From NCBI RefSeq assembly GCF_056712565.1, contig NZ_CM160072.1: a stretch of 64,000 nt of DNA; one strand, written 5' to 3'. The position numbers and the translations under genes are program-made. The notes under the pieces are model-generated. The model saw only the letters and a list, made by a program, of their open reading frames with translations, had not been told where the DNA came from and made no database searches. Positions 14,783-34,719 of the stretch are shown piece by piece (position 1 is the stretch's first letter; the number at the start of each line of letters is the position of its first letter).

Positions 14783-14806
14783 CGTGTACATAGAGGTGTA
14801 CATAAT
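14783..14806. repeat. left boundary repeat of integrative element (putative attL or integrase arm-type sites): cgtgtacatagaggtgtacataat
   Basis: Matches 34696..34719 at 22 of 24 positions in direct orientation; contains two 12-bp units with a TGTACA palindromic core; additional degenerate copies at 14814..14836. Confidence 0.6.
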
Positions 14807-14863
14807 GACTTTCATGTACATTGCTTTATGTACACACCCATATTCGATATTCAGGTATTCGCA

Positions 14864-16132
14864 ATGCCAAAACTCACAGATATGCAGATCCGCGCATGGA
14901 TAAAGGCGGGAGACAGATTTGATGGCAAGGCAGACGGCAACGGCCTTTATATTTGCTACCCCAAAAACTACACAGTCCCGTTCTGGCGATTCCGATATAA
15001 GCTCGCAGGAAAACAGCGGGCTATGGTTATCGGCTCTTACTCCGAACTGTCACTATCAAAAGCCAGAGAAATAGCAAAAGAGCTGTCAGCCAGAGTTGCT
15101 CTTGGCTATGACGTAGCAGCAGAAAAACAGGAACGAAAAGCTGAAGCACTGGCAAAAATGGAGGCTGAGAAAAACGCCATGCGCGTTTCAGATCTGGCCG
15201 CCGAATACTTCGAGCGACAGATACTTCCGAGATGGAAACATCCCGATATCCTTCGCCGGAGAATTGATAAGGATATTAACCCCTGCATTGGGCATATGAA
15301 GGTAGAGGACGTTAAGCCACGCCACATTGACGACATGTTGAAAGGTATCGTTGACCGAGGAGCACCAACGATAGCAACAGATGTATTACGCTGGACACGC
15401 CGTATCTTTGACTATGGGATAAAACGCCACGCTCTGGAGATAAACCCTTGTTCAGCGTTTGAAGTATCTGATGCTGGTGGTAAAGAGGTTTCCCGCGACC
15501 GTTGGCTAACTCGCGATGAGCTTATCAGGCTATTCGAGGCTATGCGCACCGCAAAAGGATTCAGCCGCCAGAACGAACTGACATTTAAGCTATTGCTGGC
15601 ACTATGCGTTCGTAAGATGGAGTTATGCGCCGCACGATGGGAAGAGTTTGATTTAGATGGTGCGGTATGGCATTTGCCGGAAGAACGCAGCAAAAACGGA
15701 GACCCTATTGATATACCTCTACCTTCTCCTGCCGTTGAATGGTTGAGAGAGCTACACACCTTTTCATGTAATAGCGCATGGGTGCTTCCAGCCAGGAAGA
15801 TGCAAAACAGAATGATCCCACATATTCAGGAAAGCACTTTACCCGTAGCACTGGCTAAGGTTCGCGCCGAAATGCCGGATGTGCCTAATTTCACGATTCA
15901 CGACTTCCGGCGTACCGCACGTACTCATTTAGCAGCATTGGGTGTTGATCCTGTCGTAGCGGAACGATGCCTCAATCATCGCATTAAGGGTGTGGAGGGG
16001 ATTTATAACCGCCATCAGTATTTTGATGAGCGTAAAGCTGCGCTGGCACAGTGGGCTGATCTGCTGGTGGCACTGGAAAGCGGGAAAGACTACAACGTAA
16101 CGCCATTCGATAAAGCCCGGAGGCAAATGTGA
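14864..16132 (+). CDS. int: tyrosine site-specific integrase, P4-type (N-terminal arm-binding domain plus catalytic domain)
   Basis: 422 aa from ATG 14864 (MPKLTDMQIRAWIKAGDRFDGKADGNGLYIC...WRFRYKLAGKQR); C-terminal R..HDFRRT...Y catalytic signature (HDFRRTARTHL, IYNRHQY). Confidence 0.85.
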   Translation: MPKLTDMQIRAWIKAGDRFDGKADGNGLYICYPKNYTVPFWRFRYKLAGKQRAMVIGSYSELSLSKAREIAKELSARVALGYDVAAEKQERKAEALAKMEAEKNAMRVSDLAAEYFERQILPRWKHPDILRRRIDKDINPCIGHMKVEDVKPRHIDDMLKGIVDRGAPTIATDVLRWTRRIFDYGIKRHALEINPCSAFEVSDAGGKEVSRDRWLTRDELIRLFEAMRTAKGFSRQNELTFKLLLALCVRKMELCAARWEEFDLDGAVWHLPEERSKNGDPIDIPLPSPAVEWLRELHTFSCNSAWVLPARKMQNRMIPHIQESTLPVALAKVRAEMPDVPNFTIHDFRRTARTHLAALGVDPVVAERCLNHRIKGVEGIYNRHQYFDERKAALAQWADLLVALESGKDYNVTPFDKARRQM

Positions 16133-16779
16133 ACAACATCTTGAGAAAATCGCCAATCGAACGGCTTTGTTCATCTGTATCGATTACCCCTCATGAAATG
16201 GCTGTGGCCTTGGCTGGCCTAAACCCATCTATGCGCATTAGCGATGTGCCTGAGGAAAATTTCGAATATGTCGATTTTGTCAGAACTCATCTTGCCAGAG
16301 CTATCAAGGTGTACAGAGGTGAAAAAACTAGTAAAGACGAGCCTTGCCATGCCCTTGATATTTTCTTAGCTTCTTACCCATTTATTGACACAAATACACC
16401 AGAAATAATTGTTCAGAAAATATCAGAAGCGATTGATGATTTGCGTGGCACCAAGGGCTGGGAAGAAAAAGCCCGAAACCTTGGAGGACTCCAGTTAGTA
16501 AACTACATCAAAGAAACCAACCGCAGCGGACGTGGGCAGCATAGAAAGCAGGATGAGGAAAACGGGACAATGAAAATGATGGGGTTGATAGTACATCTGC
16601 TGATAAAAAAATCAGGCTCATCTTCCTACATCCAAAATGGGAAACCTAATCGCACAGCTATATACCGTGACATAGAAACCTTAATCAAGGATGAAGGGAT
16701 ATCCCATAAAGGAATAGCAAAAGCCACATTCCTAGAAAAAATCTCACGGGCTTTATTAGCTGTCCACGATCTCGACTAA
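16129..16779 (+). CDS. hypothetical protein, translationally coupled to int (GTG start overlapping int stop)
   Basis: 216-aa ORF starting inside the ATGTGA at the int stop; no family recognised. Confidence 0.5.
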   Translation: MNNILRKSPIERLCSSVSITPHEMAVALAGLNPSMRISDVPEENFEYVDFVRTHLARAIKVYRGEKTSKDEPCHALDIFLASYPFIDTNTPEIIVQKISEAIDDLRGTKGWEEKARNLGGLQLVNYIKETNRSGRGQHRKQDEENGTMKMMGLIVHLLIKKSGSSSYIQNGKPNRTAIYRDIETLIKDEGISHKGIAKATFLEKISRALLAVHDLD

Positions 16780-17250
16780 TCACTTTTCACGCCCCTCCAA
16801 AGCAATGGCGGGGCATTACCTGTTTACCCATCTCCACCAGCATAGATAATTCTATGCCTAGCCATTGCTATATCTGTTCGGCTTAGTTCATCTGTAATCA
16901 CCCCATCTCTAAAAGATACGCCAGCTATCATTAGCCATTTTAAGCCATCATGAGCCATTATAAACCGACTCAACCAATTGAATAATAAAAGATAAAAGGA
17001 AATGTAAAAACATGATGAATGACGATGAAAGATATAACTCTTTGATAAAACAATGATTTTTTAAACTGGTAACTAATTGAAAATAAAGAAAATAATTATC
17101 CCACCTGCATTTGCAATCTTTCAGTGGATCGGTATTTTTTCAATAGATTTATAATTTCTTTCAATAGATTCTAGTCTTAATAGAAATACTGTATGGGCAA
17201 CCACTAAACTTTAAGTAACTTCATGAGCTATCAGAGAGGTTACTAGAGAT

Positions 17251-17469
17251 ATGACAGCACACAAGCCAGCATCATCAGCTATCCCAACAACTGGATACAT
17301 CCGTCGCTTTCGCATGCCGGAATTGCTAGGTGTTTCACTGCCTACTATTGATAGATGGGTTAAAAATGGCACTCTTCCACGCCCAGTGAAGCTAACAGAT
17401 AACGTGACTGCGTTTGATGCGGTGGAAATTAATAACTGGCTGGCAGAACGCCGAAACACATCAGCCTGA
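17251..17469 (+). CDS. alpA: AlpA-family phage regulatory protein / excisionase-like HTH protein
   Basis: 72-aa ORF; RFRMPELLGVSLPTIDRWVKNGTLPRPVKL is the typical AlpA/Xis-type HTH signature. Confidence 0.8.
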   Translation: MTAHKPASSAIPTTGYIRRFRMPELLGVSLPTIDRWVKNGTLPRPVKLTDNVTAFDAVEINNWLAERRNTSA

Positions 17470-17543
17470 TTAAATGACTACGGGGGATGACGTTCAACCC
17501 CACCAGCAAACAAAAGTAACTTAATTTAATAGCAGGTGTTTTT

Positions 17544-18242
17544 ATGAAACTGCGAAAAACGCCCGTACAGGGGCAGGGCTTCGTTCGGCCTGAAACCAGC
17601 ATGAGCGATATTCTGGTTCGCCACAAAGCGGAGTCGCGCATTGATTCCCGCTTATTTGCTGAGCGTATTGGCATAAAGCACAAAAACCTTTATTCGCTCA
17701 TTCAGAAGCACAAAACCGGATTGCGTGAACTGGGCATCCTTCCGTTTCAAACGGAGCGATTAAAAACCCGTCAAAACGGGGAGCGTGAACATAAGTTTGC
17801 CCTCCTGAATAGCGATCAGTTTGATTACATGTGTCGCATTGTGCGCGGTCGTGATGATGAACGCATGAACCGCTTCAAGCTGGATGTTACGAAGGCATTC
17901 GCAAAACATCGCGCTACCGAGCCTGTACGCCGTGAATATCTGCCAGGCTATCACGAAAGCCGTGACGGGCTTAAAGCACTGGGCGCAGAACGTCACCATT
18001 ACATCAATCTGGCACGCGCAGAGAACCGTGTTACAGGTCTGGTAACTGGCGAACGAGGCACAGCCAGCGAGCAGCAGTTAGGCTTGCTGATTGTCATGCA
18101 GAAAATCGAACAGGCCGCATTTGAGGAGGCGATACAGAACGGCATGACACCTACCGAAGCAGTGCGGGAGGTTGCCCGACGCATGGAGACATTCGCCAGC
18201 CTGATGACATCTGAGCCGTATCTGGGGGTAAATCATGCTTAA
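17544..18242 (+). CDS. phage regulatory protein, Rha-like
   Basis: 232-aa ORF; N-terminal DSRLFAERIGIKHKNLYSLIQKH resembles the Rha family signature. Confidence 0.5.
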   Translation: MKLRKTPVQGQGFVRPETSMSDILVRHKAESRIDSRLFAERIGIKHKNLYSLIQKHKTGLRELGILPFQTERLKTRQNGEREHKFALLNSDQFDYMCRIVRGRDDERMNRFKLDVTKAFAKHRATEPVRREYLPGYHESRDGLKALGAERHHYINLARAENRVTGLVTGERGTASEQQLGLLIVMQKIEQAAFEEAIQNGMTPTEAVREVARRMETFASLMTSEPYLGVNHA

Positions 18243-18978
18243 GGATTTCGCCGCACTTATTCCGGTATCACCTGGCATTATTGGCGGACATGAAACAGCC
18301 ATTGTCAGCGCCAGAGCGTTACATAAGGCGCTTGGTGTGAAGCGTGATTTCACTACATGGATTAAAGGGCGTATTGATCAGTACGGATTTAAAAATGGCG
18401 TGGATTTTGAGTTTGTAGAAAATTTGACCTCCCCCAATCCGGTGAGCGCAAAATCTCGCCAACGTGTAGAGCACGACTACCTGAGTACCATCAACATGGC
18501 GAAAGAACTTGCGATGGTCGAGCGTACCGAACAGGGCCGCGCTATTCGTCAGTACTTCATCAAATGCGAGGAGGAGCTACACAAAGTAGCGCCAGTGCGT
18601 TCCGCAGCGTTACGCCGTGAACTGAAAGCCCGTATCACCGTTGCCAGCTACTTTAAGCCGATGTGTGCCGCGCTGGAGGCGTACCGCGCTGAACTGGGTA
18701 AAAACACGCTCCAGCACCACTACACCACGGAAGCCAATATGCTGGCGCGTATCGTGCTGGGTGGCATGACTGCAAAACAGTGGGCGCAGGCGAACGGCAT
18801 CACAGGCGAACCACGCGACCACATGAGCACGCTGCAGCTTGAGCACCTTTCTTACCTTGAGCAGAGCAATATCACGCTGATTGAGTTAGGCCAGGACTAC
18901 CACCAGCGGAAAGCTGAATTAATTCGTCTTTCGCAACGCTGGTTAGCCCGCCGCATGGAGGTGAGCAGCCATGCGTAA
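18235..18978 (+). CDS. phage antirepressor, AntA/KilAC-type
   Basis: 247-aa ORF; ARALHKALGVKRDFTTWIKGRIDQYGFKNGVDFEF resembles the AntA N-domain; start overlaps the stop of the upstream gene. Confidence 0.55.
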   Translation: MLKDFAALIPVSPGIIGGHETAIVSARALHKALGVKRDFTTWIKGRIDQYGFKNGVDFEFVENLTSPNPVSAKSRQRVEHDYLSTINMAKELAMVERTEQGRAIRQYFIKCEEELHKVAPVRSAALRRELKARITVASYFKPMCAALEAYRAELGKNTLQHHYTTEANMLARIVLGGMTAKQWAQANGITGEPRDHMSTLQLEHLSYLEQSNITLIELGQDYHQRKAELIRLSQRWLARRMEVSSHA

Positions 18979-19528
18979 ACCTGTCTTTTATGCCGGGCGC
19001 ACTGAAATCTCTGTCATTAAATTCGATGACATTCAGGTGCGCATAGTGAGTATCAACGGCGAGCCGTGGTTTGTTGGCGCTGATGTGTGTGCTGCGCTGG
19101 AAATCAGCAATGTTACTGATGCTGTTTCAGTTCTGGATAACGACGAGGTAATGACCCTAGCTTTAACCGAGGGGCATTCCGGTAAGCGTGGTGGTGCCAG
19201 AAGCTGGAATGTTGTCTCTGAATCAGGTTTCTACAAACTGATCGCCCGCAGCCGTAAAGCTTCCACACCTGGCACATTTGCGCACCGTTTCAGTAACTGG
19301 GTATTCCGCGAGGTTATTCCTTCAATCCGCAAAACGGGGAGTTATGGTGTTCCGTTTGCCATGCTGAATGATTTCAGTAAACGCCAGGCTGCATATCAAC
19401 AGGAAGCCAGCAAACGCGGTTACAGGTTACAGCAATGCAAAGAGGCAAAAGATGCACTGGAACGAGAAGAGCGGGCGCTATGGCGTAAATATCAGCCTGA
19501 TTTTCTGGAGGGTGAAAGCAATGTGTAA
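18971..19528 (+). CDS. Bro-N domain protein (phage antirepressor-like)
   Basis: 185-aa ORF; FDDIQVRIVSINGEPWFVGADVCAALEISN is a Bro-N-like signature. Confidence 0.55.
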   Translation: MRKPVFYAGRTEISVIKFDDIQVRIVSINGEPWFVGADVCAALEISNVTDAVSVLDNDEVMTLALTEGHSGKRGGARSWNVVSESGFYKLIARSRKASTPGTFAHRFSNWVFREVIPSIRKTGSYGVPFAMLNDFSKRQAAYQQEASKRGYRLQQCKEAKDALEREERALWRKYQPDFLEGESNV

Positions 19529-19696
19529 CGATCCGAACGTTACAGAAAGAAAAAGCGCCCCGTTGCTGGATAACAGGCAAAACAAAGGCGACCGGGATAG
19601 GTCGCCAGTGGGAACAAAGGAAATCAAACGCATCGCCAACAATGCCAGATTTGCGGCTGGTGGGCAATGTGATCAGTGTGCTGGCTTGCTGGTGGG

Positions 19697-19894
19697 CTAT
19701 TCCTGCTCTTTAGCATCGCCATACTGCGATGTTTTCCAGGTATGCGATCCCATTTTTGTGCGCCTGTACTCTTTTAAGAACTTCTCAAGGACAAACGCAC
19801 ATGGCGCAAATCTTTCCTGTTCTTGTTCGCTTACCGCATTTTTGCGTTGTTTTTTCCTGGATGAGGATAATTTCTTTAATGATTTGTCAGTCAT
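19697..19894 (-). CDS. small hypothetical protein (65 aa), tandem paralog 1, C-terminal ...GDAKEQE
   Basis: Same length and C-terminal KEQE tail as neighbouring ORF; 3-prime DNA similarity (tcctgctcttt); leftward, divergent from the replication operon. Confidence 0.45.
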   Translation of the reverse strand: MTDKSLKKLSSSRKKQRKNAVSEQEQERFAPCAFVLEKFLKEYRRTKMGSHTWKTSQYGDAKEQE

Positions 19895-19951
19895 CGTAGA
19901 TACCTGTAACCCTGTGCGCCACAGTTCACCGCACCACGGCGCTGGTGATGG

Positions 19952-20149
19952 TTACTCCTGCTCTTTGGCCTTCCGGCGCTGTTCATATTTTAATTTGCGT
20001 CCACAGGCATCTAAGACCCATGCGGAAAAATTAGCACTAGGATTAGTTAATTTTTCTTGTTCAACACTGGCATCAATCCCATCTATAAGCTCGTGCGGGA
20101 ATCGAATATTTTTCTTTGCTGATTTGTTGTTTGTGTTTCCGCTAGACAT
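19952..20149 (-). CDS. small hypothetical protein (65 aa), tandem paralog 2, possible DNA-binding regulator
   Basis: MSSGNTNNKSAKKNIRFPHELIDGIDASVEQEK...; adjacent to palindromic operator-like sites at 20178..20257. Confidence 0.45.
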   Translation of the reverse strand: MSSGNTNNKSAKKNIRFPHELIDGIDASVEQEKLTNPSANFSAWVLDACGRKLKYEQRRKAKEQE

Positions 20150-20177
20150 TGGTACACCTCACTTAAATGGATTTGAT

Positions 20178-20257
20178 GGGCGCACACAATACAGCAAAAA
20201 AAGTGAGAAGTTAAGTATTGACATGTGCGCACACATGATTTTAATCTGTGCGCACAG
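20178..20257. promoter_or_regulatory. operator-like region: three copies of palindrome TGTGCGCACA (core 20224..20233; perfect 12-bp palindrome ctgtgcgcacag 20246..20257; half-site copy 20178..20188)
   Basis: Read directly; palindromes bracket a near-consensus promoter. Confidence 0.6.
20218..20245 (+). promoter_or_regulatory. candidate sigma70 promoter of the rightward replication operon (TTGACA, 16 bp, TTTAAT)
   Basis: Perfect -35 hexamer at 20218..20223; -10-like tttaat at 20240..20245; overlapped by operator palindromes. Confidence 0.45.
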
Positions 20258-20354
20258 TTTGGGTTGCATTGCTCAAATTAAGCAACGCCCCGCAGTGCTC
20301 GCAACACATGCAGGGCGTCTAACCACCAACGATAGAAAGCGTATCGAGGTAGCT

Positions 20355-20558
20355 ATGTTAAATCATACCACACACCCGCAAGGGCGGGACTCGCACAACC
20401 TGAATAAATACATCTGGCGTTTTATCGCCCTGAGCACCGCACAACCACGCGTAATACACATCGAGGCCGCCAGCGAACAGGAAGCCCGTCAGCAATCCCC
20501 GGCTGGCTGCGTGATGGTATTTACTGCCCGCATCCGTCAGGGGGAATACTATGCGTGA
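20355..20558 (+). CDS. possible small ORF (67 aa) downstream of switch promoter; stop overlaps start of next gene
   Basis: ATG at 20355 in the frame of a long, otherwise implausible ORF-track ORF; translational coupling (ATGCGTGATGA) to the 85-aa gene. Confidence 0.25.
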   Translation: MLNHTTHPQGRDSHNLNKYIWRFIALSTAQPRVIHIEAASEQEARQQSPAGCVMVFTARIRQGEYYA

Positions 20559-20808
20559 TGAACGATTTATTCTTCTGGAGCAAAAATTCAGTGAAGCGCC
20601 AAAAAATGAAATTGATGCTCTTTTGCATATCGCGAATATGCTAAAAGTAGCAACGTTCCTTATAGTTTCGAATCTGGAGCATGAAACGGCGTTAGATATA
20701 CTGAACAGTGCTGTCGATTATTCTGAATATATTGCCGAGGATAAATACAGGCAATTACCAGATTTGTTAGCCCATAAATATAAAGAAGAACCTCACACCG
20801 GGAAATAA
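20551..20808 (+). CDS. hypothetical protein (85 aa)
   Basis: ORF in operon context upstream of replication gene. Confidence 0.45.
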   Translation: MRDERFILLEQKFSEAPKNEIDALLHIANMLKVATFLIVSNLEHETALDILNSAVDYSEYIAEDKYRQLPDLLAHKYKEEPHTGK

Positions 20809-20810
20809 AC

Positions 20811-21113
20811 ATGAAGAAGATTAAATTTACTGGCTTAAATGCCAGCGGACAGACTCACCCGAAAATCAGGATCGGGGATATTTTCCGGGATAAATATGGT
20901 GACAGCGTGGTTATTAATTCCGTGTATGAACGGCACATTACATACCGCCGCGCAGGGTACGACTATGACTGTGTGATGCCCGTTCATCAGTTCCGGCGTG
21001 ATTTTTCACTGGTATGTGCAGTACCACGCAGTAAGCCCACCAGTAAAGAGAAAGCACGGGCAAATATTCAGGTAATAAAGAACATGATTAACGCATTCAG
21101 GGGCAAGAAATGA
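20811..21113 (+). CDS. hypothetical protein (100 aa)
   Basis: ORF tightly packed between 85-aa ORF and replication gene (overlap ATGA at 21110). Confidence 0.45.
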   Translation: MKKIKFTGLNASGQTHPKIRIGDIFRDKYGDSVVINSVYERHITYRRAGYDYDCVMPVHQFRRDFSLVCAVPRSKPTSKEKARANIQVIKNMINAFRGKK

Positions 21114-23236
21114 AACGCGCACCGAATTTAAAGCACCAGCCGAAAGACAAAATGACGGAGGTGATTATCTTTGCGGGTAGTGATGCCTGGGCACATGCGA
21201 AAGAGTGGAGCGAATGGGCCGGAAAGCATATTGCGGCAGATGATACACATCCAGTTATTCTTGGACCGGAACAACTGGCGAGTCTGGCAGACACGCAAAT
21301 CATCGACAAAGGGCGCTATTACGTGCGCGTTTATCGTGCTGGTGAAATATCAGAGCAGCACCTTACACAGATAGCGACACTGCTTGCAGTGGCGGGTGTG
21401 AAGGAGGCGCGTTGCTACCGCAGCTTTGTTGATCAGCAGCCGGAGGACTGGACACCGCGCATGGCTGGACTGAAGGATGATGCGGAACGCGGTAACAGTC
21501 TGGTGATCAACCTTCCGGCGAAGACAAATTTCACCGGAAATTATGATGACGAATTAAAGCCTCGTGTTGAAAGTCGCGTCGATGGTGTTTTCTGGGTAAC
21601 GCCCAAAGTGGACAAGCAGTCAGGCGAAATTATCCGGCCTGAGACGTGGTTATGTTCTCCGCTTGAACTACTGGGAACAGGAACAATCGGCAAAGAGCAT
21701 TACCGCGTGATGCGCTGGAAAAAACCAGCAAACCATGAGGTCATTACAATGGCGGTCCCGTGCGGAGGCATTGGTGACCGTGACGGCTGGCGGTTGCTGA
21801 AAGACCACGGCCTTAACGTGACGACCAACGGCAAATACAGGGCTATCCTGGCTGACTGGATGCAGTTAAGCGGAAACCATGAGGAATGGCAGTTAAGCAC
21901 AACAACGGGGTGGCATTTTGGTGCGTACATCATGCCGGATGGTTCGGTCATTGGTGAATCAGAGAAACCCATCCTGTTTACCGGAAAAACTGCCGCTGTT
22001 AATGGCTATTCCGTGGCGGGAACAGCGGAGGGCTGGCGCGATACCGTGGCACGGCTGGCTGGTGGTAATCCGTCCATGATGCTGGGTGTGGCGGTATCGC
22101 TATCCGCACCATTAATCGGGCTGGTGGGTGCTGACGGCTTCGGGGTTCATCTTTTTGAGCAATCATCAGCAGGTAAAACCACCACACAGAACATTGCATC
22201 AAGTTTATGGGGAGAGCCGGACGCGCAACGGCTGACCTGGTACGGAACGGCGTTAGGTATCGCCAACGAGGCCGAAGCACATAATGACGGGCTGTTACCC
22301 CTGGATGAAATAGGCCAGGCCGGAAACGCGCGGGAGGTGTCCACGTCAGCCTATACGCTGTTTAACGGTTCCGGGAAATTACAGGGGGCGAAGGACGGCG
22401 GCAACAGGGAGATAAAACACTGGCGCACGGTGGCAATCAGCACCGGAGAAATGGACGTTGAAACATTCCTCAAAACGGAAGGGATAAAAATTAAAGCGGG
22501 GCAGCTTGTCCGTCTGCTTAACGTGCCGATGGAAAAGGCATCGCAGTTTCACGAATACAGCACCGGAAAGGCGCACGCAGACGCGTTAAAAGATGCCTGG
22601 ACAGAAAATCACGGGGCGGCAGGTCGTGAGTGGGTTAAATGGCTGGCAGGTCACCAGCAGGAGGCAAAGGACGCGGTAAGGGCATGTCGCGAGCGGTGGC
22701 GCAACCTGATACCGGAGAGCTACGGCGAGCAGGTTCACCGTGTGGGGGAAAGATTCGCCGTACTGGAGGCCGCGCTTGTGCTTTCCGGTCATGTTACAGG
22801 CTGGGATGTTCAGGCGTGCCGTGATGCAGTTCAGCATAACTTTAATGCCTGGGTGAAGGAATTCGGCACGGGCAACAGGGAATTTAAACAGATGGTTGAA
22901 CAGGCTGAGGCGTTTTTGTCGTCGTTCGGGTTCAGTCGATACCTTCCCTATCCAAACAGCGACGAGCGTGATTTACCGATTAAAGACCTTGCCGGATACA
23001 GAAAGGGGAGTATCAGAAACGAAGATGACGAGTTCCGTTTTTACACGTTCCCGCATGTGTTTGAGGGTGAGATAGCACAGGGATTTAATCCGTCTCACTT
23101 TGCCCGCGCGTTGAGTGCTGCCGGAATGCTGGAAGCGGGAGGCGACCGCCGTTACAAGAAAAAGGCGCTCGGCAGGATTGGCGGGAAGCAGCATATTTTT
23201 TACGTGCTGATGTTCCAGCCTGAAGCAGAAGATTAA
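21110..23236 (+). CDS. putative replication initiator: primase/helicase-like protein with P-loop motif (possibly DUF927-type)
   Basis: 708-aa ORF; P-loop-like FEQSSAGKTTTQ; followed immediately by iteron-like repeats and ssb. Confidence 0.55.
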   Translation: MKRAPNLKHQPKDKMTEVIIFAGSDAWAHAKEWSEWAGKHIAADDTHPVILGPEQLASLADTQIIDKGRYYVRVYRAGEISEQHLTQIATLLAVAGVKEARCYRSFVDQQPEDWTPRMAGLKDDAERGNSLVINLPAKTNFTGNYDDELKPRVESRVDGVFWVTPKVDKQSGEIIRPETWLCSPLELLGTGTIGKEHYRVMRWKKPANHEVITMAVPCGGIGDRDGWRLLKDHGLNVTTNGKYRAILADWMQLSGNHEEWQLSTTTGWHFGAYIMPDGSVIGESEKPILFTGKTAAVNGYSVAGTAEGWRDTVARLAGGNPSMMLGVAVSLSAPLIGLVGADGFGVHLFEQSSAGKTTTQNIASSLWGEPDAQRLTWYGTALGIANEAEAHNDGLLPLDEIGQAGNAREVSTSAYTLFNGSGKLQGAKDGGNREIKHWRTVAISTGEMDVETFLKTEGIKIKAGQLVRLLNVPMEKASQFHEYSTGKAHADALKDAWTENHGAAGREWVKWLAGHQQEAKDAVRACRERWRNLIPESYGEQVHRVGERFAVLEAALVLSGHVTGWDVQACRDAVQHNFNAWVKEFGTGNREFKQMVEQAEAFLSSFGFSRYLPYPNSDERDLPIKDLAGYRKGSIRNEDDEFRFYTFPHVFEGEIAQGFNPSHFARALSAAGMLEAGGDRRYKKKALGRIGGKQHIFYVLMFQPEAED

Positions 23237-23260
23237 CTTCCCTGTGTGAGGTAAAAAGTT

Positions 23261-23383
23261 GCGGGTTATGCGGGTTATCCTGTGCATAAGTTAATTAACT
23301 GCATGATTAAAAAGGAAATCAATAACCCGCACGTAACCCGCAAAACGGCAGTTATAACCCGCAAATGTGCGATTGTAACCCGC
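23261..23383. repeat. iteron-like cluster 1: two direct GCGGGTTAT copies (23261..23278) plus four inverted (A/G)TAACCCGC copies (23322..23383); candidate origin
   Basis: Read directly from sequence; between the replication protein gene and ssb. Confidence 0.7.
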
Positions 23384-23446
23384 AAAATTTCACTGTAAGA
23401 GTGTAAACAAGCGTAACTATCACGTTAAAACCGGAGAACAAACAGC

Positions 23447-23869
23447 ATGACGGCGCAAATATCAGCTTACGGGCGGCTGGTGGCTGACCCGCAGTTAAAG
23501 ACCACCAGCAAGGGCACACAAATGGCGATGGCGAGTATGGCGGTCCCCCTTCCATGCAATCAGGCAGATGACGGAACGGCGACGATGTGGTTATCCGTCC
23601 TGGCGTTTGGCAGACAGGCCGACGCACTGGCAAAACACCACAAAGGCGAACTGGTGAGCGTGGCGGGTAACATGCAGGTAAGCCAGTGGACAGGCCAGAA
23701 CGGCGAAACGCGGCAGGGCTGGCAGGTTATCGCAGACAGCGTAATCAGTGCGAGAACGGCGCGACCGGGCGGCAAAAAAGGCCAGCAAGGGCAGGCTACT
23801 GACGCACTGAACAGGGCAAAACAACAGGCGGGTAACGACGATCCGTACGGGGACGGGATACCGTTTTAA
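23447..23869 (+). CDS. ssb: single-stranded DNA-binding protein (SSB)
   Basis: 140-aa ORF with OB-fold-like N-terminus, Gly/Gln-rich linker and acidic C-terminal tip ...DDPYGDGIPF typical of SSB. Confidence 0.75.
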   Translation: MTAQISAYGRLVADPQLKTTSKGTQMAMASMAVPLPCNQADDGTATMWLSVLAFGRQADALAKHHKGELVSVAGNMQVSQWTGQNGETRQGWQVIADSVISARTARPGGKKGQQGQATDALNRAKQQAGNDDPYGDGIPF

Positions 23870-23905
23870 TTCACAACAGCGAACAGAGTAATTACAGGGG
23901 AAGGC

Positions 23906-24403
23906 ATGACAAAGCTGACCATAAACAGAAAACCGAAGGGCATTTACGGCACGCCGCAGAAAACAGCACAGGCGGCGCAGCAGCAGAATAAAACCACATC
24001 GGCGCATAAAGTGATGCCAGATAACCAGAACACACAGCAGAAGCTCACAGGAGCAACACCGCGGCGGCGTATGACCAAACAGCAGCGTAAAAACCGCAGA
24101 CGCGTTAACCGTCTTATTGAGCTATGGCCTGAATTATTCAGCCCGGAATCACCTAAGCCGCTTAAGGTGGGGATATTTGACGACCTGATACAGGATATTG
24201 CCGCGAGAGGTATTTCACTCGGACAGGGAACACTACGCGCAACGCTGGCGCGTTATGTGCAGACTCCGCGCTATTACCGCGCCCTGGTAGCTGGTGGCGC
24301 GCGTTACGACCTGAAAGGCCAGCCGTGCGGCGAGGTAACACCACTACAACAGACGCACGCAGGAAAACTACTGGAGGAGATGAATGGAAATAGTAAGAAA
24401 TGA
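23906..24403 (+). CDS. FinO/ProQ-domain RNA-binding protein
   Basis: 165-aa ORF; [82 protein letters not shown] matches the FinO/ProQ N-terminal domain pattern (PLKIGI...LR.AL..YT.S..YL....GA.R.DL.G...G.V). Confidence 0.7.
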
Positions 24404-25166: not shown

Positions 25167-25373
25167 GTGAATTGTATTAACGACCTGAACACAGGCGATG
25201 TCAGAGGTGGTTCCGTTCATCTGGATGCACAGACCGTGATGCGCATTAAGCAGTACAGAATCGACCATGTGAACAATCACCCTGATCAGCCATTACCAGG
25301 CGTGGCGCAGATTGTCAGACATGCCGTAAACGCCTGGCTTAATCAGAATGGTTTTGCATCGGGGGGTGAGTAA
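25167..25373 (+). CDS. small hypothetical protein (68 aa) upstream of large-protein operon
   Basis: ORF only; GTG/ATG start ambiguous. Confidence 0.3.
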   Translation: MNCINDLNTGDVRGGSVHLDAQTVMRIKQYRIDHVNNHPDQPLPGVAQIVRHAVNAWLNQNGFASGGE

Positions 25374-25469
25374 TGAATCGCTGGTACAGCATCAAAGCAG
25401 AGGGACGCCAATGTTATCTAACTCAGGTTTTATGAATTCTGACTCCCGATTCAAAATAGGAGGTTACTA

Positions 25470-28001: not shown

Positions 28002-30061
28002 TGTCTGATGTTTTTTCTTTGGCTCCAGAAGGTCAGGCATGGATTGACGACAAAACAGTTGCCAACCCAGCAAGGCCAGAAGACTACGATCCGACTCCCT
28101 TCCAGGGTTCAGGTACTGCACTTTTGAGCGGCGTGGCGGAGGGGGCTCTCGGTCTCGCGCAGTCTGCCGTCGGATTCAGCAAGCGCCTGATTAGCGATCC
28201 GGCATTTACCGCAGACGTGGCACCGACTGTTAATATTTTTCGGGAGATGTTCCCTGATGCTGACAAAACACTGAATGATACATACGACACGATCGGAAAA
28301 CAGTTACAGGATGCCCGCAGCTATGTGAAGCCTGATGCAGGCAGTCAGGGAATGGCGGCTGAGGTATTAAATGAGCTTGGTAAATTTGTTCCTGCAATCG
28401 GAACAACTATGTTTGGCGGTCCCCTCATCGGCGCTGCTACAGCTTTCAGTTCTACGTATGAGCAGTCCTATCAGGATTTTAAAGGGAAGGGAGTAGACGA
28501 GGCTACGGCGCGTAACCTGGCAACGCAGCAAAGCCTTTTCAATGCTGTGGGTATGGCCTTACCCGCTGCCGTCGGCACCACACTGGCAACGCGCATTGCC
28601 TCAGGTGTGGCAATCAACACCGGATTCGGTGGACTGAACCGTTACTCTGTCGGCGCAACACTGGAGGAAAAAGGCTACACGGAGATGGCAAAACAGTACC
28701 GGGTATTTGACGGTCAGGCGATGTTAGTCGATGCCGTTTTAGGCGGGGTCTTTGGTGGCGTTCATCACCTGACTACCCATAATAACCATGATGGTACAGA
28801 GTCGAACATTTCTGCAGAAGAAATAAAATCAACTTTTGGTGAACATTATCAGCAATCTCCTGATGGTAACATTGAGTCAATGGTTCGTGATTTATCTGAT
28901 TCAGGAGTAATAGAACTTATTAATGAACCAGCAATAAAAAATAGTGATGGAGAAATACTTCTGAATAAAGGTCATGTGACAGTAGCTTCTGGAAAAGAAC
29001 CAATAATAAGAATAAATATTAATGGATTAAAAGATCATGAAGAACTGTTAGAAACCCTTCATCACGAGGCGCTTCATCTTGAGCAGCGCCATTACCCTGA
29101 CTGGAAGGCCAGAAAGCTAGCTAATGCTGTACTTAAATCTGCAAACAAGCATTCTGACTATCCTGAATTTGCATATGGGATGTCACAATATTATGAATAT
29201 AAGAAAAGGGGTGAGTACCCTGAAACATATCCTGAGTGGTTGTACGCTGAAGAAGTTGCCGCACATGCAGTAAATCCATCTCTAAAGACAAGCGTTTCAT
29301 CATGGGAAAAAATTATTTCAGGTTTTAAAGCCTATATATTCAGATACAGTGGTATTCAGGTTGGAACCGTTACACCTGAGCAGTTACGGTTACTCGTAAG
29401 TATGCGTCTTCGCAATATGAAACTGGAAGCCGCAGTCGAAAAAGTTTTTGGTATCCGGGCAAGGGAAAGAATAAAACCAAGCGATATTGATGCAGCCCAC
29501 ATTTTGAATGAGGGGCTTCATTACGATATTGAATCGTCACCAGTGCTTCACACCAGCAATGAGAGCATCAACAGCCATGTTGACGCCATGGATGAAGCAT
29601 ACAGGCAACTTAATGATGGTCAGCCTGTAAATGTTGGGGGGATGGCGCGAGGGCTTGATGGTCCATTGCGATCAGATATATCTGATACTTACCAAGAGCA
29701 ATACCATGAAATACAAAAGGTTTTTGAAGAAAATGGTGTCAGATATGAAACATCATCAGAGCCAATTAGTGAATCGCCTGTCCCTCGTGCTGAAAGTGCT
29801 TTCTCATCGGCTGGTGAACACAGAGGGGACGTCAGCGTTGATCCAGATACAGGGCAGGTTCTCTCATCCAACAGCTATGACCTTATGGCTGCCAGAGACA
29901 TGGCTGTTGCCAATCCTGAGCTGACTATAGCTCACCCGGAAACCGGAAACCCGACAAAACTTTCTGATCTCCTGGCTGAGTTGGATGAACAGATTAAGAC
30001 AGTCCAGAACGAATCGAAGGTTTATTCTGTAGCGGCAGCGTGCTTCTTGAGGAACCCATAA
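28001..30061 (+). CDS. large hypothetical protein B (686 aa) with glycine-zipper-like hydrophobic N-terminal region and HExxH zinc-metallopeptidase motif (LHHEALHLEQRH)
   Basis: Translationally coupled on both sides; HEALH motif encoded within a conspicuously AT-rich segment (about 28790..29350). Confidence 0.6.
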   Translation: MSDVFSLAPEGQAWIDDKTVANPARPEDYDPTPFQGSGTALLSGVAEGALGLAQSAVGFSKRLISDPAFTADVAPTVNIFREMFPDADKTLNDTYDTIGKQLQDARSYVKPDAGSQGMAAEVLNELGKFVPAIGTTMFGGPLIGAATAFSSTYEQSYQDFKGKGVDEATARNLATQQSLFNAVGMALPAAVGTTLATRIASGVAINTGFGGLNRYSVGATLEEKGYTEMAKQYRVFDGQAMLVDAVLGGVFGGVHHLTTHNNHDGTESNISAEEIKSTFGEHYQQSPDGNIESMVRDLSDSGVIELINEPAIKNSDGEILLNKGHVTVASGKEPIIRININGLKDHEELLETLHHEALHLEQRHYPDWKARKLANAVLKSANKHSDYPEFAYGMSQYYEYKKRGEYPETYPEWLYAEEVAAHAVNPSLKTSVSSWEKIISGFKAYIFRYSGIQVGTVTPEQLRLLVSMRLRNMKLEAAVEKVFGIRARERIKPSDIDAAHILNEGLHYDIESSPVLHTSNESINSHVDAMDEAYRQLNDGQPVNVGGMARGLDGPLRSDISDTYQEQYHEIQKVFEENGVRYETSSEPISESPVPRAESAFSSAGEHRGDVSVDPDTGQVLSSNSYDLMAARDMAVANPELTIAHPETGNPTKLSDLLAELDEQIKTVQNESKVYSVAAACFLRNP

Positions 30062-32817
30062 TGAAACAGGCATGTGTTGAAGCTATTGCGCAGACACTTG
30101 GTCGCCAGCCAAAGGCTGATGAGCTGAAAAATATCGAAGATCGTATCAAAGAAGCAGTGCAACATGTGCACAGAAAGAATGCAAAAGAAGGCAAAAGTGG
30201 TATTCCTGATGCTCAAACATACATGGATGCTGCAGAACTGGTACGCCAGCGTGTGGTTCATGATGTGTACAAGAAAAGACAGCGTGTTGCCCAGAATGCG
30301 ATCGCCATCAGTAAAATTACTGACACTCTCGATGCTAACATCCCGCCTGATCAGCAGACACCTGTTAATTTGCAGCAGTTTATTTTTGCTGGCCGACGAT
30401 CGAGAGACAAAGCTGATATCTCCGTTGCTTCTGCTGAAGAGCTTGCAATTGGGGCATATCAGGACTGGTCCCGTCAGCTCAGTGCTGAACTTCTAAAAGC
30501 AGGTGATGACGTCCGCAAATTCTTCGAGCAGAGCAGGGCGCTTGGAGAGCAGCGGTTTCGGAGTGTATTCGACAGGCAGGCGGCAAAGTCTGCACAACTC
30601 CAGATCCTGAAAGAAATTTATGGCGAAGATACCGGGAATCCCCTGGCGAAGAAAATTGCACAGATTTGGAAGGATGTAACAGGCCGTGTTCGTCATGAGA
30701 TGAACGACAACGGCTTTGACATAGGCCTGCGAGAAGACTGGCATACGCCATATGTGGATGATGCTGACCTTATTCGCAATGCCGGGCGCGAAGAATGGCT
30801 GGCATCGTTACCAGTGGCAGAGCAAGCTACAGCACGTCTTTCAGGTCGCCAGCCACCGATTGAGTTTGCCCGCCAGAAATGGGTTGATGACGCTTACAAC
30901 ACGCAGGATCGCAGCAATTACGTTAATCCTGACGGCAGCATTATGAATGACGTCGAGTACCGTCAGGCACTGGAAGCGATCTTTGAAACGAAGGCCACTG
31001 ATGGGGCAAACAAAATTGAGCCCGGTACATTTATGGGAGCCGGAGGAATAAAGAGCCGTGGTTCTCAGCACAGGGTGATGGCGTTCAAGGATGCGCAGTC
31101 ACACTTCGCCTATATGGAGCGATACACTCAGCAGCCGCTGGTGGGGGTGATGATGTCGCACCTGCAATCATCATCCAGGGATTTGGGCGTCGTTAAAGCC
31201 TTTGGTCCGGACGCCGAAAGAAACTTTTCCCTGGTACTGGATCGCATCTATAAGCGCGCAGTAACAGGCGGGAAACGCAAAAAAGAAATGGAGGATGAGG
31301 CCAAATTAGTAGCCCGTATGTTCAACTCAATGGCTGGCCTAAATGGTGTCGCTTCATCGAGTGTGTTCTCTTCAGCTGTTGGTGGTCTGCGTAACCTGAT
31401 GACCAGCGCCATGCTTGGCACCAGCGTACTGACAGCAACCAGCGACCAGGCAATTATGCGGGCAAATGCGCAGGCGCTGGGCTTTACCCGTGGTGGAATG
31501 CGGCTTTCCGTTAACACTATCAAAAACCTGTTTAGTGGAGATGCCAAAAAGGCGAATGCTGAACTCGGTCTGCTGGTGGATTCACATGCTGCTGTGGTTT
31601 CGAAAATGGGCGGGTTTGACTTGTCTCGCGGCATAACTGGCTGGTTCGCAGAGAAGACACTGAAGTGGTCCGGGCTGATCGCTATGGACCGCGCAAACAA
31701 AGCGTCGTTTGGTCTCCTGATGTACAAAAACATTGGCGAGCTGACCAGAAAATTTAAGACGCTGGACGATATGAAAGGAACCGATAAAACCATTCTGGCT
31801 AACAAGGGATGGAGCAATGAGGACTGGGCCATCATGGCAGCGGCAGAACTCAGGCCGATGACTACTGCCGGGCATATGGGGATGACGCCAGACGCGATTT
31901 ACGCTGTGCCCGATAACGTAATCGCCGACATTATGGCAGACCGTATTACCCGGATTCGTGCCGGGAGTGAAAAGGCACTGGCAGCACTTGGAGATCTCCC
32001 TCCAGAACGCCTGAAACGGATGAAAGAAGCATTCGACGCTGAGGCTGAGCAGACCATCACGCGCATGATTCGTAATGCACGCGCTGAAGCAGCCCATAAA
32101 TTGCTGGGAATTACGCACGGTGAGATGACCAATGCTGTGACCACCGCTACGGGTATTGATACATATGCCCGTGATGATGCTGGCGAGTTAATGAAGAGCT
32201 TCATGCTCTTCAAAACAACCCCATTTGCTGGATTTCGGCAACTTGTTAACAGAACACGGGATTTGGACACCGTTCCGGCCATTAAATTTCTGGCCTCATA
32301 TATCGGGGGAACAACTCTTGCTGGTATGTTTGCGATCCAGATGAACAGTTTGTTAAATGGTAATGATCCGCTGGATATGACAAAACCAACCACATGGGTT
32401 CAGGCTTTACTGAAAGGTGGTTCGTTCGGTATCTACGGTGATTTTATTTTCCAGGACCATACGCAATATGGCTCCAGCATCGGTGCCACTATGGGTGGCC
32501 CTGTGTTGAGCTTTGCAGAGCAGTTAACAAAATTACTGATTACTAACCCACAGAAGGCTCTACAGGGTGAAGAAACATCATTCGGTGCCGATGCACTGAA
32601 AACAGCCCGCATGATCACCCCATTCGCAAACCTGTGGTATGCGAAAGCGATAACCAATCACCTGATATTGCAACAACTTCAGGAGATGGCAAACCCTGGT
32701 TACAATGATCGAGTAAGGGACCGCGCGCAACGGGAGTTCGACATAACGAGTTGGTGGGAACCGGGTGCTATTGCGCCACGTAGAGCACCGGATTTTGGAA
32801 AGGCGGTAGGGGAATGA
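30061..32817 (+). CDS. large hypothetical protein C (about 918 aa)
   Basis: ATG at 30061 overlaps stop of protein B (TAATG); ORF track offers an upstream GTG at 30040. Stop overlaps start of the next small ORF (ATGA). Confidence 0.6.
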   Translation: MKQACVEAIAQTLGRQPKADELKNIEDRIKEAVQHVHRKNAKEGKSGIPDAQTYMDAAELVRQRVVHDVYKKRQRVAQNAIAISKITDTLDANIPPDQQTPVNLQQFIFAGRRSRDKADISVASAEELAIGAYQDWSRQLSAELLKAGDDVRKFFEQSRALGEQRFRSVFDRQAAKSAQLQILKEIYGEDTGNPLAKKIAQIWKDVTGRVRHEMNDNGFDIGLREDWHTPYVDDADLIRNAGREEWLASLPVAEQATARLSGRQPPIEFARQKWVDDAYNTQDRSNYVNPDGSIMNDVEYRQALEAIFETKATDGANKIEPGTFMGAGGIKSRGSQHRVMAFKDAQSHFAYMERYTQQPLVGVMMSHLQSSSRDLGVVKAFGPDAERNFSLVLDRIYKRAVTGGKRKKEMEDEAKLVARMFNSMAGLNGVASSSVFSSAVGGLRNLMTSAMLGTSVLTATSDQAIMRANAQALGFTRGGMRLSVNTIKNLFSGDAKKANAELGLLVDSHAAVVSKMGGFDLSRGITGWFAEKTLKWSGLIAMDRANKASFGLLMYKNIGELTRKFKTLDDMKGTDKTILANKGWSNEDWAIMAAAELRPMTTAGHMGMTPDAIYAVPDNVIADIMADRITRIRAGSEKALAALGDLPPERLKRMKEAFDAEAEQTITRMIRNARAEAAHKLLGITHGEMTNAVTTATGIDTYARDDAGELMKSFMLFKTTPFAGFRQLVNRTRDLDTVPAIKFLASYIGGTTLAGMFAIQMNSLLNGNDPLDMTKPTTWVQALLKGGSFGIYGDFIFQDHTQYGSSIGATMGGPVLSFAEQLTKLLITNPQKALQGEETSFGADALKTARMITPFANLWYAKAITNHLILQQLQEMANPGYNDRVRDRAQREFDITSWWEPGAIAPRRAPDFGKAVGE

Positions 32818-33155
32818 AAAAGTTAAATACACCAACCAAAAGAGTTGGGGGGCTTCTGATTGTCATTGGAATTATATTTATACTTGCATCTATAATAGAA
32901 ATATCAAGTAATGAGTTTGCTATTTCTGATAGTCCATATTATCGATCGCTAAATGCATATGATATTATTTTTATGTATTTAGAGCGAATTACAGATACTT
33001 TCATCATGACTCTAACATTTCAAACATGGAGTAGCCGTTTCAGTATATTAATGTTAGTAGGGTTTTGTTTATTTATTGTTGGTGTTCTTATTTCATATTT
33101 TTACGATGCTGGAATTGGCAGGGTTGTTAAGTGGATAAGAACGGGTAATTGGTGA
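32814..33155 (+). CDS. small hydrophobic protein (113 aa, two predicted TM segments), AT-rich gene
   Basis: Start ATG overlaps stop of protein C; hydrophobic stretches GLLIVIGIIFILASII and FSILMLVGFCLFIVGVLISYF; markedly lower GC than flanks. Confidence 0.5.
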   Translation: MKKLNTPTKRVGGLLIVIGIIFILASIIEISSNEFAISDSPYYRSLNAYDIIFMYLERITDTFIMTLTFQTWSSRFSILMLVGFCLFIVGVLISYFYDAGIGRVVKWIRTGNW

Positions 33156-33237
33156 TTATAAGCAAGCTATTGGTTTCATTGTTTATATCGTTGTCGGAAC
33201 TTTTTCAACTGACAGCAATCATAGCCGGGCTTGAATC

Positions 33238-33528
33238 GTGGTGGGGATTGCACTGGATAATTGCAGCCCCATTGCTTTCATCGTGAGCTATATTCCATTT
33301 GTTGGAGCGATTGTTGGTATGGTTGGCGCTATGGATGTATGGTGTTGGGAGTGGTGGCAGGCTGGCCTTCTATTCTTTGGTGGATCATCTTTGCTATTGT
33401 CAGCGGTGGAATGTCATCATTTTTCGAATGGCTATCATTCAGAAAAAGAGCGTGACATGTCACAGGCCGCTTTCGCGGCCTTGTTTTTAACGAATGCCAC
33501 CGCCGCCCGGGCGGGAATCCGCAGATAA
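33238..33528 (+). CDS. possible small membrane protein (96 aa); reading frame uncertain (three overlapping ORFs)
   Basis: Hydrophobic segments; alternative frames 33261..33455 and 33299..33490 also open. Confidence 0.3.
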   Translation: MVGIALDNCSPIAFIVSYIPFVGAIVGMVGAMDVWCWEWWQAGLLFFGGSSLLLSAVECHHFSNGYHSEKERDMSQAAFAALFLTNATAARAGIRR

Positions 33529-34156
33529 AAAAGCCCGCTGCACGGTTTTATTAATACTTATACCATTAGGATTGATCCTTCAATGGACAATCCTTCCATC
33601 GTGTGGCCAGCCATTCATATTCTTTGTCTTTTCTTCAGTACCGGCTTTGCATCTTCTACACCCTGAAAGATGTCGTTTTATGGTGTATCTGATGATTTAT
33701 TCCCTAACAATAGATATTCGAAAAATTAATCAGTTAAAACAATTATTTGGATAATTTCAGGTAAAAACTATCTTAATCTTCTGGTGGATCTCAATGCGCC
33801 GTGACGGTATCGGGATTAAGGGCGTGGATATTCGCGATATATGCCGCTACACCCCTCAACAGTAATAGATATGCGCTTTTCACGCTCTCCTTTCACTGCT
33901 GAGAACGGCAACAACGTGCCACAGGAACGCGCTGTAATCGATTCTGACGCACTTAATTGCGTTGGGTAATGGTTTGCCAGCCTGTGGGGGTAACTCTGTT
34001 TTATGAGGCTTTGGCTATAGTGCAAAAATGCACTTTGTCTTGCCTCTCAATTTGATGAGACTGGAACGACAACAGGACAGACCACCAGCAACAGTTACCG
34101 TATTCAGCCGTTCTGTGGCACCAGTGGAACTATCCACCCCTGCTTTCAGCAATGTG

Positions 34157-34311
34157 TTTGCGGGTTATTTTGGGGCGTTTGCGGGTTATTTGGGATGTTT
34201 TGCGGGTTATGCGATGCTTGAATAATGAACAGTGCATTTTGCAACATATTGATACTAAAGAACAAAAAATAGTTAGCACACTAAGATAACCCGGTAACCC
34301 GCATAACCCGC
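34157..34311. repeat. iteron-like cluster 2: three direct TTTGCGGGTTAT copies at 21-bp spacing (34157..34210) plus three contiguous inverted TAACCCG(C/G) copies (34286..34311)
   Basis: Read directly; same 9-mer as cluster 1, about 11 kb away near the right end of the element. Confidence 0.7.
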
Positions 34312-34695
34312 ACTGTTTTGTATATATATACGAAAAATTGCATTCAGGAGGGGGGATCGAAATCCCTACAACCCATTGCTTATGGGACCGCCGCCTCGTC
34401 AAATTTTTACACCCGCGAAATAAAAAATACTTCACGCTGGTGGGCATGATGCTGATATGAGAGGCTTCCATAACGCCACCATTCGAAACTATGCAAATCT
34501 GCATAGAAAAGGGGATGCCTGATACAATACCCTCGCCCGATAAAATCACACCGATAAACTCATCTGCCACGAGTAGAAAGAGCGAACGAACCCGATACGC
34601 AGTAATGCTGGTCGGGTCCAGCTTTTTAAGGCGGCTGTAGATATCAGGCCATCCGTGATCATCCACCAGCGTAATTGCTGAACGCTTTAAAAAAA

Positions 34696-34719
34696 CGTGT
34701 ACATAAGGGTGTACATAAT
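34696..34719. repeat. right boundary repeat of integrative element (putative attR or arm-type sites): cgtgtacataagggtgtacataat
   Basis: 22 of 24 identity with 14783..14806, direct orientation. Confidence 0.6.

Follow-up and report, generated by a model that had tools for sequence, protein, structure and literature searches.

Attachment of an Escherichia coli island to the last 21 nucleotides of yicC, and the probable arm-type role of its 24-bp repeats

Where does the island between yicC and dinD begin and end, and what are the two 24-bp direct repeats that seem to enclose it? The locus lies in a 64-kb stretch of contig NZ_CM160072.1 (the window), which is 100% identical to Escherichia coli ExPEC (extraintestinal pathogenic E. 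coli) strain XM, NZ_CP025328.1. A preliminary description, made from the letters of the window, had proposed an integrative element of about 20 kb, opened by a P4-type integrase and bounded by the 24-bp repeats. Comparison with other genomes indicates that it is very probably a satellite-type island inserted by a P4-family tyrosine integrase into the last 21 nt of yicC, and that the 24-bp repeats are most likely tandem arm-type sites. The host genes and the repeats are located as follows.

13812-14675, + strand: yicC (host, RefSeq annotation), the last 21 nt of which are the attachment core
14783-14806, + strand: left 24-bp repeat CGTGTACATAGAGGTGTACATAAT, with predicted arm-type sites P'1 (14784-14792) and P'2 (14796-14804), 12 bp apart
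34696-34719, + strand: right 24-bp repeat CGTGTACATAAGGGTGTACATAAT, with predicted arm-type sites P1 (34697-34705) and P2 (34709-34717)
35022-35846: dinD (host, RefSeq annotation), the right-hand neighbour of the island

Both repeats were found as first described, differing at 2 positions and each consisting of two 12-bp units with TGTACA at the centre. With up to 3 mismatches allowed, the window contains no further match, and the number obtained from 100 dinucleotide-preserving shuffles was 0.00; the exact 9-mer GTGTACATA has five copies in the 64 kb, all within the two arms (14784+, 14796+, 14827- in inverted orientation, 34697+ and 34709+). As the longest direct repeat flanking the island, with zero expected by chance, the pair could be taken for the attachment core itself, which would make the element run exactly from 14783 to 34719 within the yicC-dinD spacer.

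We give that reading practically no chance, as the site was also viewed in genomes that lack the island. Both junctions were searched against 5,426 complete E. coli genomes. In the island-free genomes the left-flank homology ends at 14675-14677 and the right-flank homology begins at 34780. The empty sites of UTI89 and MG1655 read ...GAGCAGATCCAGAACATTGAATAActcgtaacg... and contain neither the 24-bp repeats nor the DNA between the repeats and the junctions, which amounts to 108 bp between the attL core and the left repeat and 60 bp between the right repeat and the attR core; the empty yicC-dinD spacer has zero TGTAC. An alignment of attL, attR and the two empty sites shows that the element ends in an imperfect direct repeat of 21 bp, CAGATCCAGAAYATYGAATAA, located at 14655-14675 and 34780-34800 (two matches vs 0.02 expected), which is the last 21 nt of yicC with the stop codon included. 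The site of UTI89 is empty and its flanks are 99.8-100% identical to those of the window, with only 2 differences on the left flank, both at wobble bases of the core. Deleting 14655-34779 in silico, so that 14654 is joined to 34780, restores the UTI89 sequence perfectly (100% over 2,400 bp, no gap). The element is thus 20,125 bp long and the 24-bp repeats are internal to it. The preliminary description was right about an integrative element of this size between yicC and dinD but not about its bounds, and the alignment with empty-site genomes that it had suggested as a check placed the junctions elsewhere than at the repeats. Its own caveat, that the repeats might be arm-type sites and not the crossover core, is the option favoured by the evidence. 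The features at the junctions are these.

14655-14675, + strand: attL core CAGATCCAGAATATCGAATAA (B-O-P'); the left 11 nt are the same as in attB and two wobble differences (T, C) are element-derived
14712-14741, + strand: element-borne rho-independent terminator, AAAGCCCG..CGGGCTTT and a T-run, standing in for the native yicC terminator
34780-34800, + strand: attR core CAGATCCAGAACATTGAATAA (P-O-B'); rightwards from the core start the sequence is 100% identical to UTI89

Because attL carries AATATC and attR the host version AACATT, the exchange is placed within the left 11 nt of the core, CAGATCCAGAA. With the exchange on that side, attL therefore receives the synonymous wobble bases of the element, attR keeps those of the host, and YicC is unchanged. 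N-I-E-stop is encoded by either version of the core, and the YicC proteins of XM (occupied) and UTI89 (empty) share the accession WP_000621332.1. The terminator hairpin is strong and directly follows the rebuilt yicC stop, and a hairpin at this place is kept in cross-genus relatives. On the right, the terminator native to yicC (34839-34861) and the LexA box of dinD (34961-34976) lie in host DNA that does not differ from the empty site. The target is accordingly the coding 3' end of yicC, rebuilt with synonymous codons, rather than the intergenic region first named, and no link to the dinD SOS promoter was found.

No tRNA is used as target, as had been noted: the sole tRNA in the window is tRNA-Sec at 60580, and none lies within 25 kb of the insertion. 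This is less unusual for a P4-type integrase than was supposed, as the yicC 3' end is a published and experimentally used att site (PMC4344509, PMC8409611). It is the known target of MGIVflInd1, MGIVmi1, the SGI1-like integrative elements (IEs) IEEcoMOD1 and IESenUSA1, and Shewanella GI21/GISpuPO1 (PMC4344509, PMC8409611, PMC8978831).

If the core is correctly placed, joining the left side of attR to the right side of attL predicts the attP junction. The predicted attP spans about 300 bp (34689-34779, the core, then 14676-14863) and reads ...CTCTACAAA-CAGATCCAGAATATCGAATAA-GCTATCAG... This junction occurs exactly in three metagenome contigs from E272-type relatives, in which a single core connects 34689-34800 with 14655 and the sequence continues into int. 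Both TGTACATA pairs lie on one molecule, on either side of a yicC-like core with AATATC as predicted, an arrangement that also speaks against the 24-bp repeats being the core.

What, then, are the 24-bp repeats? The integrase and the genes that follow it are needed here.

14864-16132, + strand: int, P4-family tyrosine integrase of 422 aa (Pfam PF13356, PF22022, PF00589)
16129-16779, + strand: orf216, overlapping the int stop codon (ATGA); no known domain
17251-17469, + strand: AlpA/Vis-like helix-turn-helix (HTH) protein of 72 aa (Pfam Phage_AlpA 6.9e-6, HTH_17; phrog_66 'excisionase and transcriptional regulator')

The first of these bears out the P4-type assignment, with Arm-DNA-bind_3, Phage_int_M and Phage_integrase domains in order. 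PF13356 (Arm-DNA-bind_3) covers residues 4-90 (E 1.3e-18) and PF00589, the tyrosine-recombinase catalytic domain, residues 213-385 (E 1.4e-16), with R250, H346-x-x-R349, H372 and Y381 as candidate catalytic residues; identity to P4 Int is 25% (E 3e-20). No Pfam domain was detected in orf216, which accompanies int in E. coli variants and is missing from most relatives in other genera. The 72-aa AlpA-like protein is a candidate excisionase and regulator.

The arm sites share the consensus TGTAC(A/C)YA and form tandem pairs at a 12-bp pitch. P4 has the same integrase domain architecture and the same attP layout, with an int-side pair at about 110 bp, an inverted copy near int and a far pair at about 55-60 bp. 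The primary description of P4 Int and attP is said to be that of Pierson and Kahn from 1987. The P4 record (NC_001609) marks 12-bp 'attP arm sequence repeats' in three places: on the int side, where a tandem pair lies 112 bp away from the 20-bp core; at the int start, in inverted orientation; and on the far side, again as a tandem pair, at a distance of 53 bp. The corresponding distances between arm pairs and core in the island are 108 and 60 bp. The motif itself differs, being TGTACAYA in the island and GGGGGCA in P4, and so does the target, which is tRNA-Leu in P4 and the yicC 3' end here. Compared with a P4-family module, the island thus has the Arm-DNA-bind_3 domain, a predicted catalytic domain, and tandem 12-bp arm repeats with an inverted copy; a core formed by a tRNA 3' end, which is typical of the family but not universal, is replaced by the last 21 nt of yicC. 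Beyond the pairs, the attachment region holds several smaller features.

14677-14755, + strand: second repeat family, with CTATCA at 14677, AATCAC at 14688, TTATCA at 14740 and CTATCA at 14750
14814-14835: further predicted arm-type sites, a degenerate ATGTACATT (14814-14822) and an inverted GTGTACATA (14827-14835)
14841-14855, - strand: inverted core copy, TATTCGATATTCAGG vs CCAGAATATCGAATA of the core (14660-14674), 14/15 identical, just before the int start
34672-34695, + strand: left boundary of the int-attP cassette that can be exchanged, directly after the last position homologous to the tRNA-Gly sister element (34671)
34726-34756: P-arm inverted repeat CCGCATT / AATGCGG, between the P-arm sites and the core

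Exchange of the int cassette offers a comparison within E. coli. The element body (17500-34671, ~98% identical) matches without this int cassette in about 20 of 40 genomes among the matches listed. In one such genome that was inspected (L009), the body sits at tRNA-Gly with another int, another adjacent open reading frame (ORF) and another HTH gene. Its Int is 29% identical to that of the island, and its arms carry GTGTATAG tandem pairs 114 bp and, on the far side, 59 bp from a tRNA-derived core. An inverted GTGTATAG copy abuts the int ATG, and the inverted site, 29 bp before int in the island, occupies the same relative position in P4, in L009 and in 29 relatives. The island and L009 are homologous up to 34671, which is 25 bp short of the right 24-bp repeat; in yicC-type elements with other cargo, the right-end homology begins at about 34689, some 7 bp left of that repeat. 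A further variant, the Oki/90-3040 element, is about 85% identical in DNA over the left junction including the 5' part of int, and has GTGTACCCA twice in attL and (G/A)TGTACACA twice in attR.

A cross-genus scan, limited to one genome per species, returned 68 loci. All 37 relatives of the integrase with at least about 41% identity follow yicC at a distance of some 190 bp and in the same orientation, in Enterobacterales, Aeromonas, Tolumonas, Zobellella, Vogesella, Azonexus, Rhodocyclaceae and metagenome-assembled genomes (MAGs). Within the TGTAC clade, each of the 29 other-genus loci has 3-4 TGTAC/GTACA sites in the 100 bp before int, with the first two exactly 12 bp apart and the last inverted. 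The background is 0.08 TGTAC per 100 bp, and none of 1,622 windows reaches 3. More distant integrase clades have GTGCAC or four copies of TGTAGCT at the arm-site position.

The same sites might instead be operators for the AlpA-like HTH protein, the orf216 product or a host factor, controlling int or excision. A palindrome such as TGTACA is suited to a dimeric regulator of the HTH type, the sites are found shortly before int, and in L009 int is exchanged together with the HTH gene and the ORF next to it. This explanation is nonetheless improbable, because the motif and its 12-bp pitch persist in 29/29 relatives, although orf216 is mostly absent from them and AlpA is 31-38% identical or undetected. 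In addition, AlpA is tracked by a separate repeat family: TATCA where AlpA identity is at least 58%, and ACTCC in five copies where it is 34-38% (L022, L026). The TGTACA sites also occur on both arms, in the geometry of the annotated P4 arm repeats, and the integrase has a dedicated arm-binding domain.

The arm-type reading can be extended into a working model, in which the P4-family integrase would insert the 20,125-bp island at the yicC 3' end, rebuilding the stop codon and supplying a new terminator. The N-terminal Arm-DNA-binding domain of Int would most likely bind TGTAC(A/C)YA, at two arm sites in the distal P arm and at two sites plus the degenerate and inverted copies in the int-proximal P' arm. 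The C-terminal domains would bind the core, and Int, being bivalent, would link the two kinds of site in an intasome, as it does in lambda and P4. The logic of a bivalent integrase resembles that of the lambda Int arm sites, with 2 sites in the P arm and at least 3 in the P' arm of the island; the integrase subfamily differs from those of lambda and KplE1. Self-repression of P4 Int was reportedly described by Piazzolla et al. in 2006, whom the KplE1 paper cites. Int probably represses its own gene in the island as well, because the P' sites lie directly upstream of int. Such self-repression happens in KplE1, where, as in the island, the region upstream of int overlaps attL arm sites and candidate sites of the recombination directionality factor (RDF) in the IntS/TorI system (PMC2951348). 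The 72-aa AlpA-like protein would probably drive excision via the TATCA repeats between the core and the arm sites; this second repeat family has a 10-11 bp pitch, lies on both sides of the terminator and constitutes a set of candidate binding sites for an AlpA-like directionality factor. The comparisons thus establish the ends, the core and the side of it on which exchange took place, the unchanged YicC, the arrangement, conservation and co-variation of the arm sites, and the attP junction; the assignment of proteins to sites, the autoregulation of int and the control of excision are drawn by analogy with known systems.

Several points weigh against this account of the island. The assignment of the arm sites to the N-terminal domain of Int draws on analogy and on co-variation that partly reflects shared ancestry, and the L009 swap, which changes int, the adjacent ORF and the HTH gene together, cannot alone tell which protein reads the motif. 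A consensus scan of 14500-15000 gave no sigma-70 promoter upstream of int; Int autoregulation is therefore without sequence support, and the regulatory part is the weakest step of the proposal. The predicted attP junction had 0 matches in the IMG/VR viral contigs. The three attP contigs have neither terminal overlap nor periodicity, so that a circle is indistinguishable from a tandem array; they could stem from circles released by excision, from concatemers or from tandem arrays, and tandem yicC::DUP insertions have been documented for MGIVflInd1 (PMC4344509).

Two of the smaller features fit less directly into the model. The inverted core copy might provide Int with an additional core-type site or take part in a regulatory pairing. 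When tested at 33 loci for co-variation with the local yicC end, it showed no consistent co-variation, and a related sequence, TATTCAATGTTCAGG, is found in about 10 close lineages and is absent from distant clades. At the position of the P-arm inverted repeat, the 90-3040 variant has another inverted pair (TTATTAC/GTAATGA), which suggests a conserved structural or protein-binding element. An Rfam search of 14000-35500 with E up to 0.1 returned 0 non-coding RNA matches.

A further question is whether the island can still move, and this depends on what it carries.

17544-24403, + strand: regulation/replication module with Rha, AntA/B, BRO-N, YlcI/YnfO (- strand), Icd-like, DUF4222, DUF927, single-stranded DNA-binding protein (SSB) and ProQ/FinO
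21110-23236: DUF927 primase-helicase, within this module
25459-33525, + strand: podovirus late-operon cassette with homologues of epsilon15 gp15/gp16/gp17 and two small ORFs
34157-34312: iterons, three TTTGCGGGTTAT copies with a 21-bp period and, on the other side of an AT-rich stretch, inverted copies of the ATAACCCGC type

Nucleotide matches to epsilon15 and phiV10 equate the three large ORFs of this 8-kb cassette, and the small ORFs after them, with the last part of the late operon of these phages. The gp15 homologue (843 aa) is a lytic transglycosylase; the gp16 homologue has 686 aa and the gp17 homologue 918 aa in RefSeq (925 aa as a mechanically called ORF). Their PHROG matches are phrog_992 (E 2e-298), phrog_1145 and phrog_684 (E 6e-295) for gp15, gp16 and gp17, respectively. 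NCBIfam gave no match for the cargo ORFs. A defense-island reading of the cargo was rejected, as the three large ORFs and orf216 and the 113-aa, 96-aa and 251-aa ORFs had 0 PADLOC matches, and the PHROGs show the large ORFs to be virion proteins. The iteron cluster may be the origin at which the DUF927 primase-helicase starts replication.

The island could be a decayed prophage or a satellite chimera that has become fixed in place, its att-like features being functionless relics. In keeping with this, genes for capsid, terminase, tail and lysis are missing from it, its PerC gene is frameshifted, and the predicted attP was not found among the IMG/VR viral contigs. In the E272 variant, moreover, an 11-bp deletion has left the attR core 11 bp short of the expected sequence. 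We consider such fixation unlikely. The int, alpA, primase and three large virion genes are intact, and the ratio of nonsynonymous to synonymous substitution rates (dN/dS) of the latter, calculated for the copies at yicC and at tRNA-Gly, is 0.07-0.15. Near-identical backgrounds differ in whether the site is occupied, that of UTI89 being empty; the same body is found at two att sites, each time with another int cassette; and attP-configured junctions of family members exist. The element is also strongly associated with a candidate helper prophage.

That prophage was recognized in XM itself, which contains a complete-looking phiV10-like prophage next to guaA (NZ_CP025328.1, 2.796-2.834 Mb, L086) with a K1 endosialidase tailspike. 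Its gp15-gp17 represent another allele set than the epsilon15-type one of the island, the proteins being only 71% (gp15), ~29% (gp16) and 27% (gp17) identical, yet the DNA bracketing the cassette is 96.5% (25459-27004) and 92.5% (33143-33525) identical to the prophage. A chimeric query of island-type gp17 and phiV10-type portal was run over the 5,426 complete genomes. Island-type gp17 was found in 36 genomes, with a second match in 25 of them (69%), which was the phiV10-type portal in the six that were cross-checked. The baseline of the phiV10-type portal is 517/5,426 (9.5%), giving an odds ratio of 23 (Fisher p = 4e-18, uncorrected for clonality).

These observations allow the tentative idea, to which we give rather less than an even chance, that phiV10/epsilon15-like podoviruses (Uetakevirus) have in this island a functional satellite, one that lacks capsid-remodelling genes and carries an alternative set of three core/ejection proteins. 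The cassette would then equip satellite particles with ejection machinery, poison helper virions or donate ejection-protein alleles to the helper. A dimer would fill the helper head, because the 20.1-kb island is about half the size of the helper genome. The 10.5-kb island of E272 (L005/L080), with the same int/attP, has a P22 gp20-like ejection protein (phrog_917) at the cargo position and a truncated next gene, which hints at a general habit. It is possible that the island is instead a recombinational relic. Helpers of described satellites are mostly myo- and siphoviruses, and the idea, if true, would add a podovirus helper family beside them. No paper linking satellites with phiV10/epsilon15 or with ejection/core proteins was found in the literature searched, and a podovirus satellite with its own ejection proteins would be a hijacking strategy not found there.

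Which class of element does the island belong to? In common with P4 it has a small AlpA/Vis-type HTH protein, an Icd-like protein and a primase-helicase. P4-like satellites have the psu/delta/sid capsid-size module, which is absent from the island annotation and PHROG scans, and P4 has a cos region, whereas none was recognized in the island and its cargo consists of podovirus core genes. With Gram-negative phage-inducible chromosomal islands (PICIs) the island shares a terminal int gene, an alpA-type regulator and a primase/replicase, in the conserved order, together with its candidate iteron origin and its position at yicC. No capsid-morphogenesis or small-terminase family was found on it, and the N-terminus of a 138-aa ORF weakly matches phrog_1711 'terminase'. 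At 20 kb the island exceeds the ~10-15 kb of a typical PICI, and its three large virion core/ejection genes are outside PICI definitions. As for induction and packaging by a helper phage, the signs are confined to the co-occurrence with phiV10-like prophages and the attP-type contigs. SatelliteFinder excludes a 'Type C PICI' class, which has int, AlpA and primase without capsid or small-terminase genes (PMC10085698). The island fits this excluded class and is not a canonical P4-like satellite.

Islands such as MGIVflInd1 enter the yicC 3' end by means of a tyrosine integrase together with a directionality factor of small size, also in E. coli, and their int/att module can be exchanged between backbones; the island resembles them in both respects, its directionality factor being a candidate. 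Insertion at the yicC 3' end with the reading frame restored is likewise found here. Elements of the MGIVflInd1 type are mobilized by conjugation (mimicry of the origin of transfer, oriT; mobI or mpsA/traG/traN), whereas the island has phage-satellite content. None of mobI, mpsA, traG, traN and sgaC is among the 25 annotated island genes or the PHROG matches, with no sequence-level oriT search having been made. Because no mobilization genes are annotated, the island is not a mobilizable genomic island (MGI) or integrative and mobilizable element (IME).

This integrase is present next to yicC in 496 of the 5,426 complete E. coli genomes (~9%), only 18 of which share this right end, and the cargo of the family varies, with element sizes from 10.5 kb in E272 through ~16 kb in Oki/90-3040 to 20.1 kb in the XM island. 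The yicC 3' end as target, a P4-type integrase without a tRNA target and the P4-style arm layout are already known, and novelty in these respects is low. The results correct the annotation by giving the true ends of a common E. coli island. They also define an attP of about 300 bp that could serve for site-specific integration at a conserved, non-tRNA and non-disruptive locus, yicC being present from Enterobacterales to Betaproteobacteria. The wider interest is in the podovirus ejection-gene cargo.

Some minor observations concern other parts of the region. The RefSeq hypothetical protein WP_170991934.1 (251 aa, 34130-34885, - strand) probably does not correspond to a real gene: its frame begins in host DNA and then crosses the core of attR, the arm-type sites and the iteron cluster, and its translation is Cys-rich, of poor quality and without a family match. 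The PerC-family regulator at 24809-25034 is annotated as frameshifted in the island as well as in the tRNA-Gly sister element. The tRNA-Sec gene (selC, 60580-60674) near the end of the window is a classic island integration site, and in strain OkiPb01679 it is followed by an integrase pseudogene.

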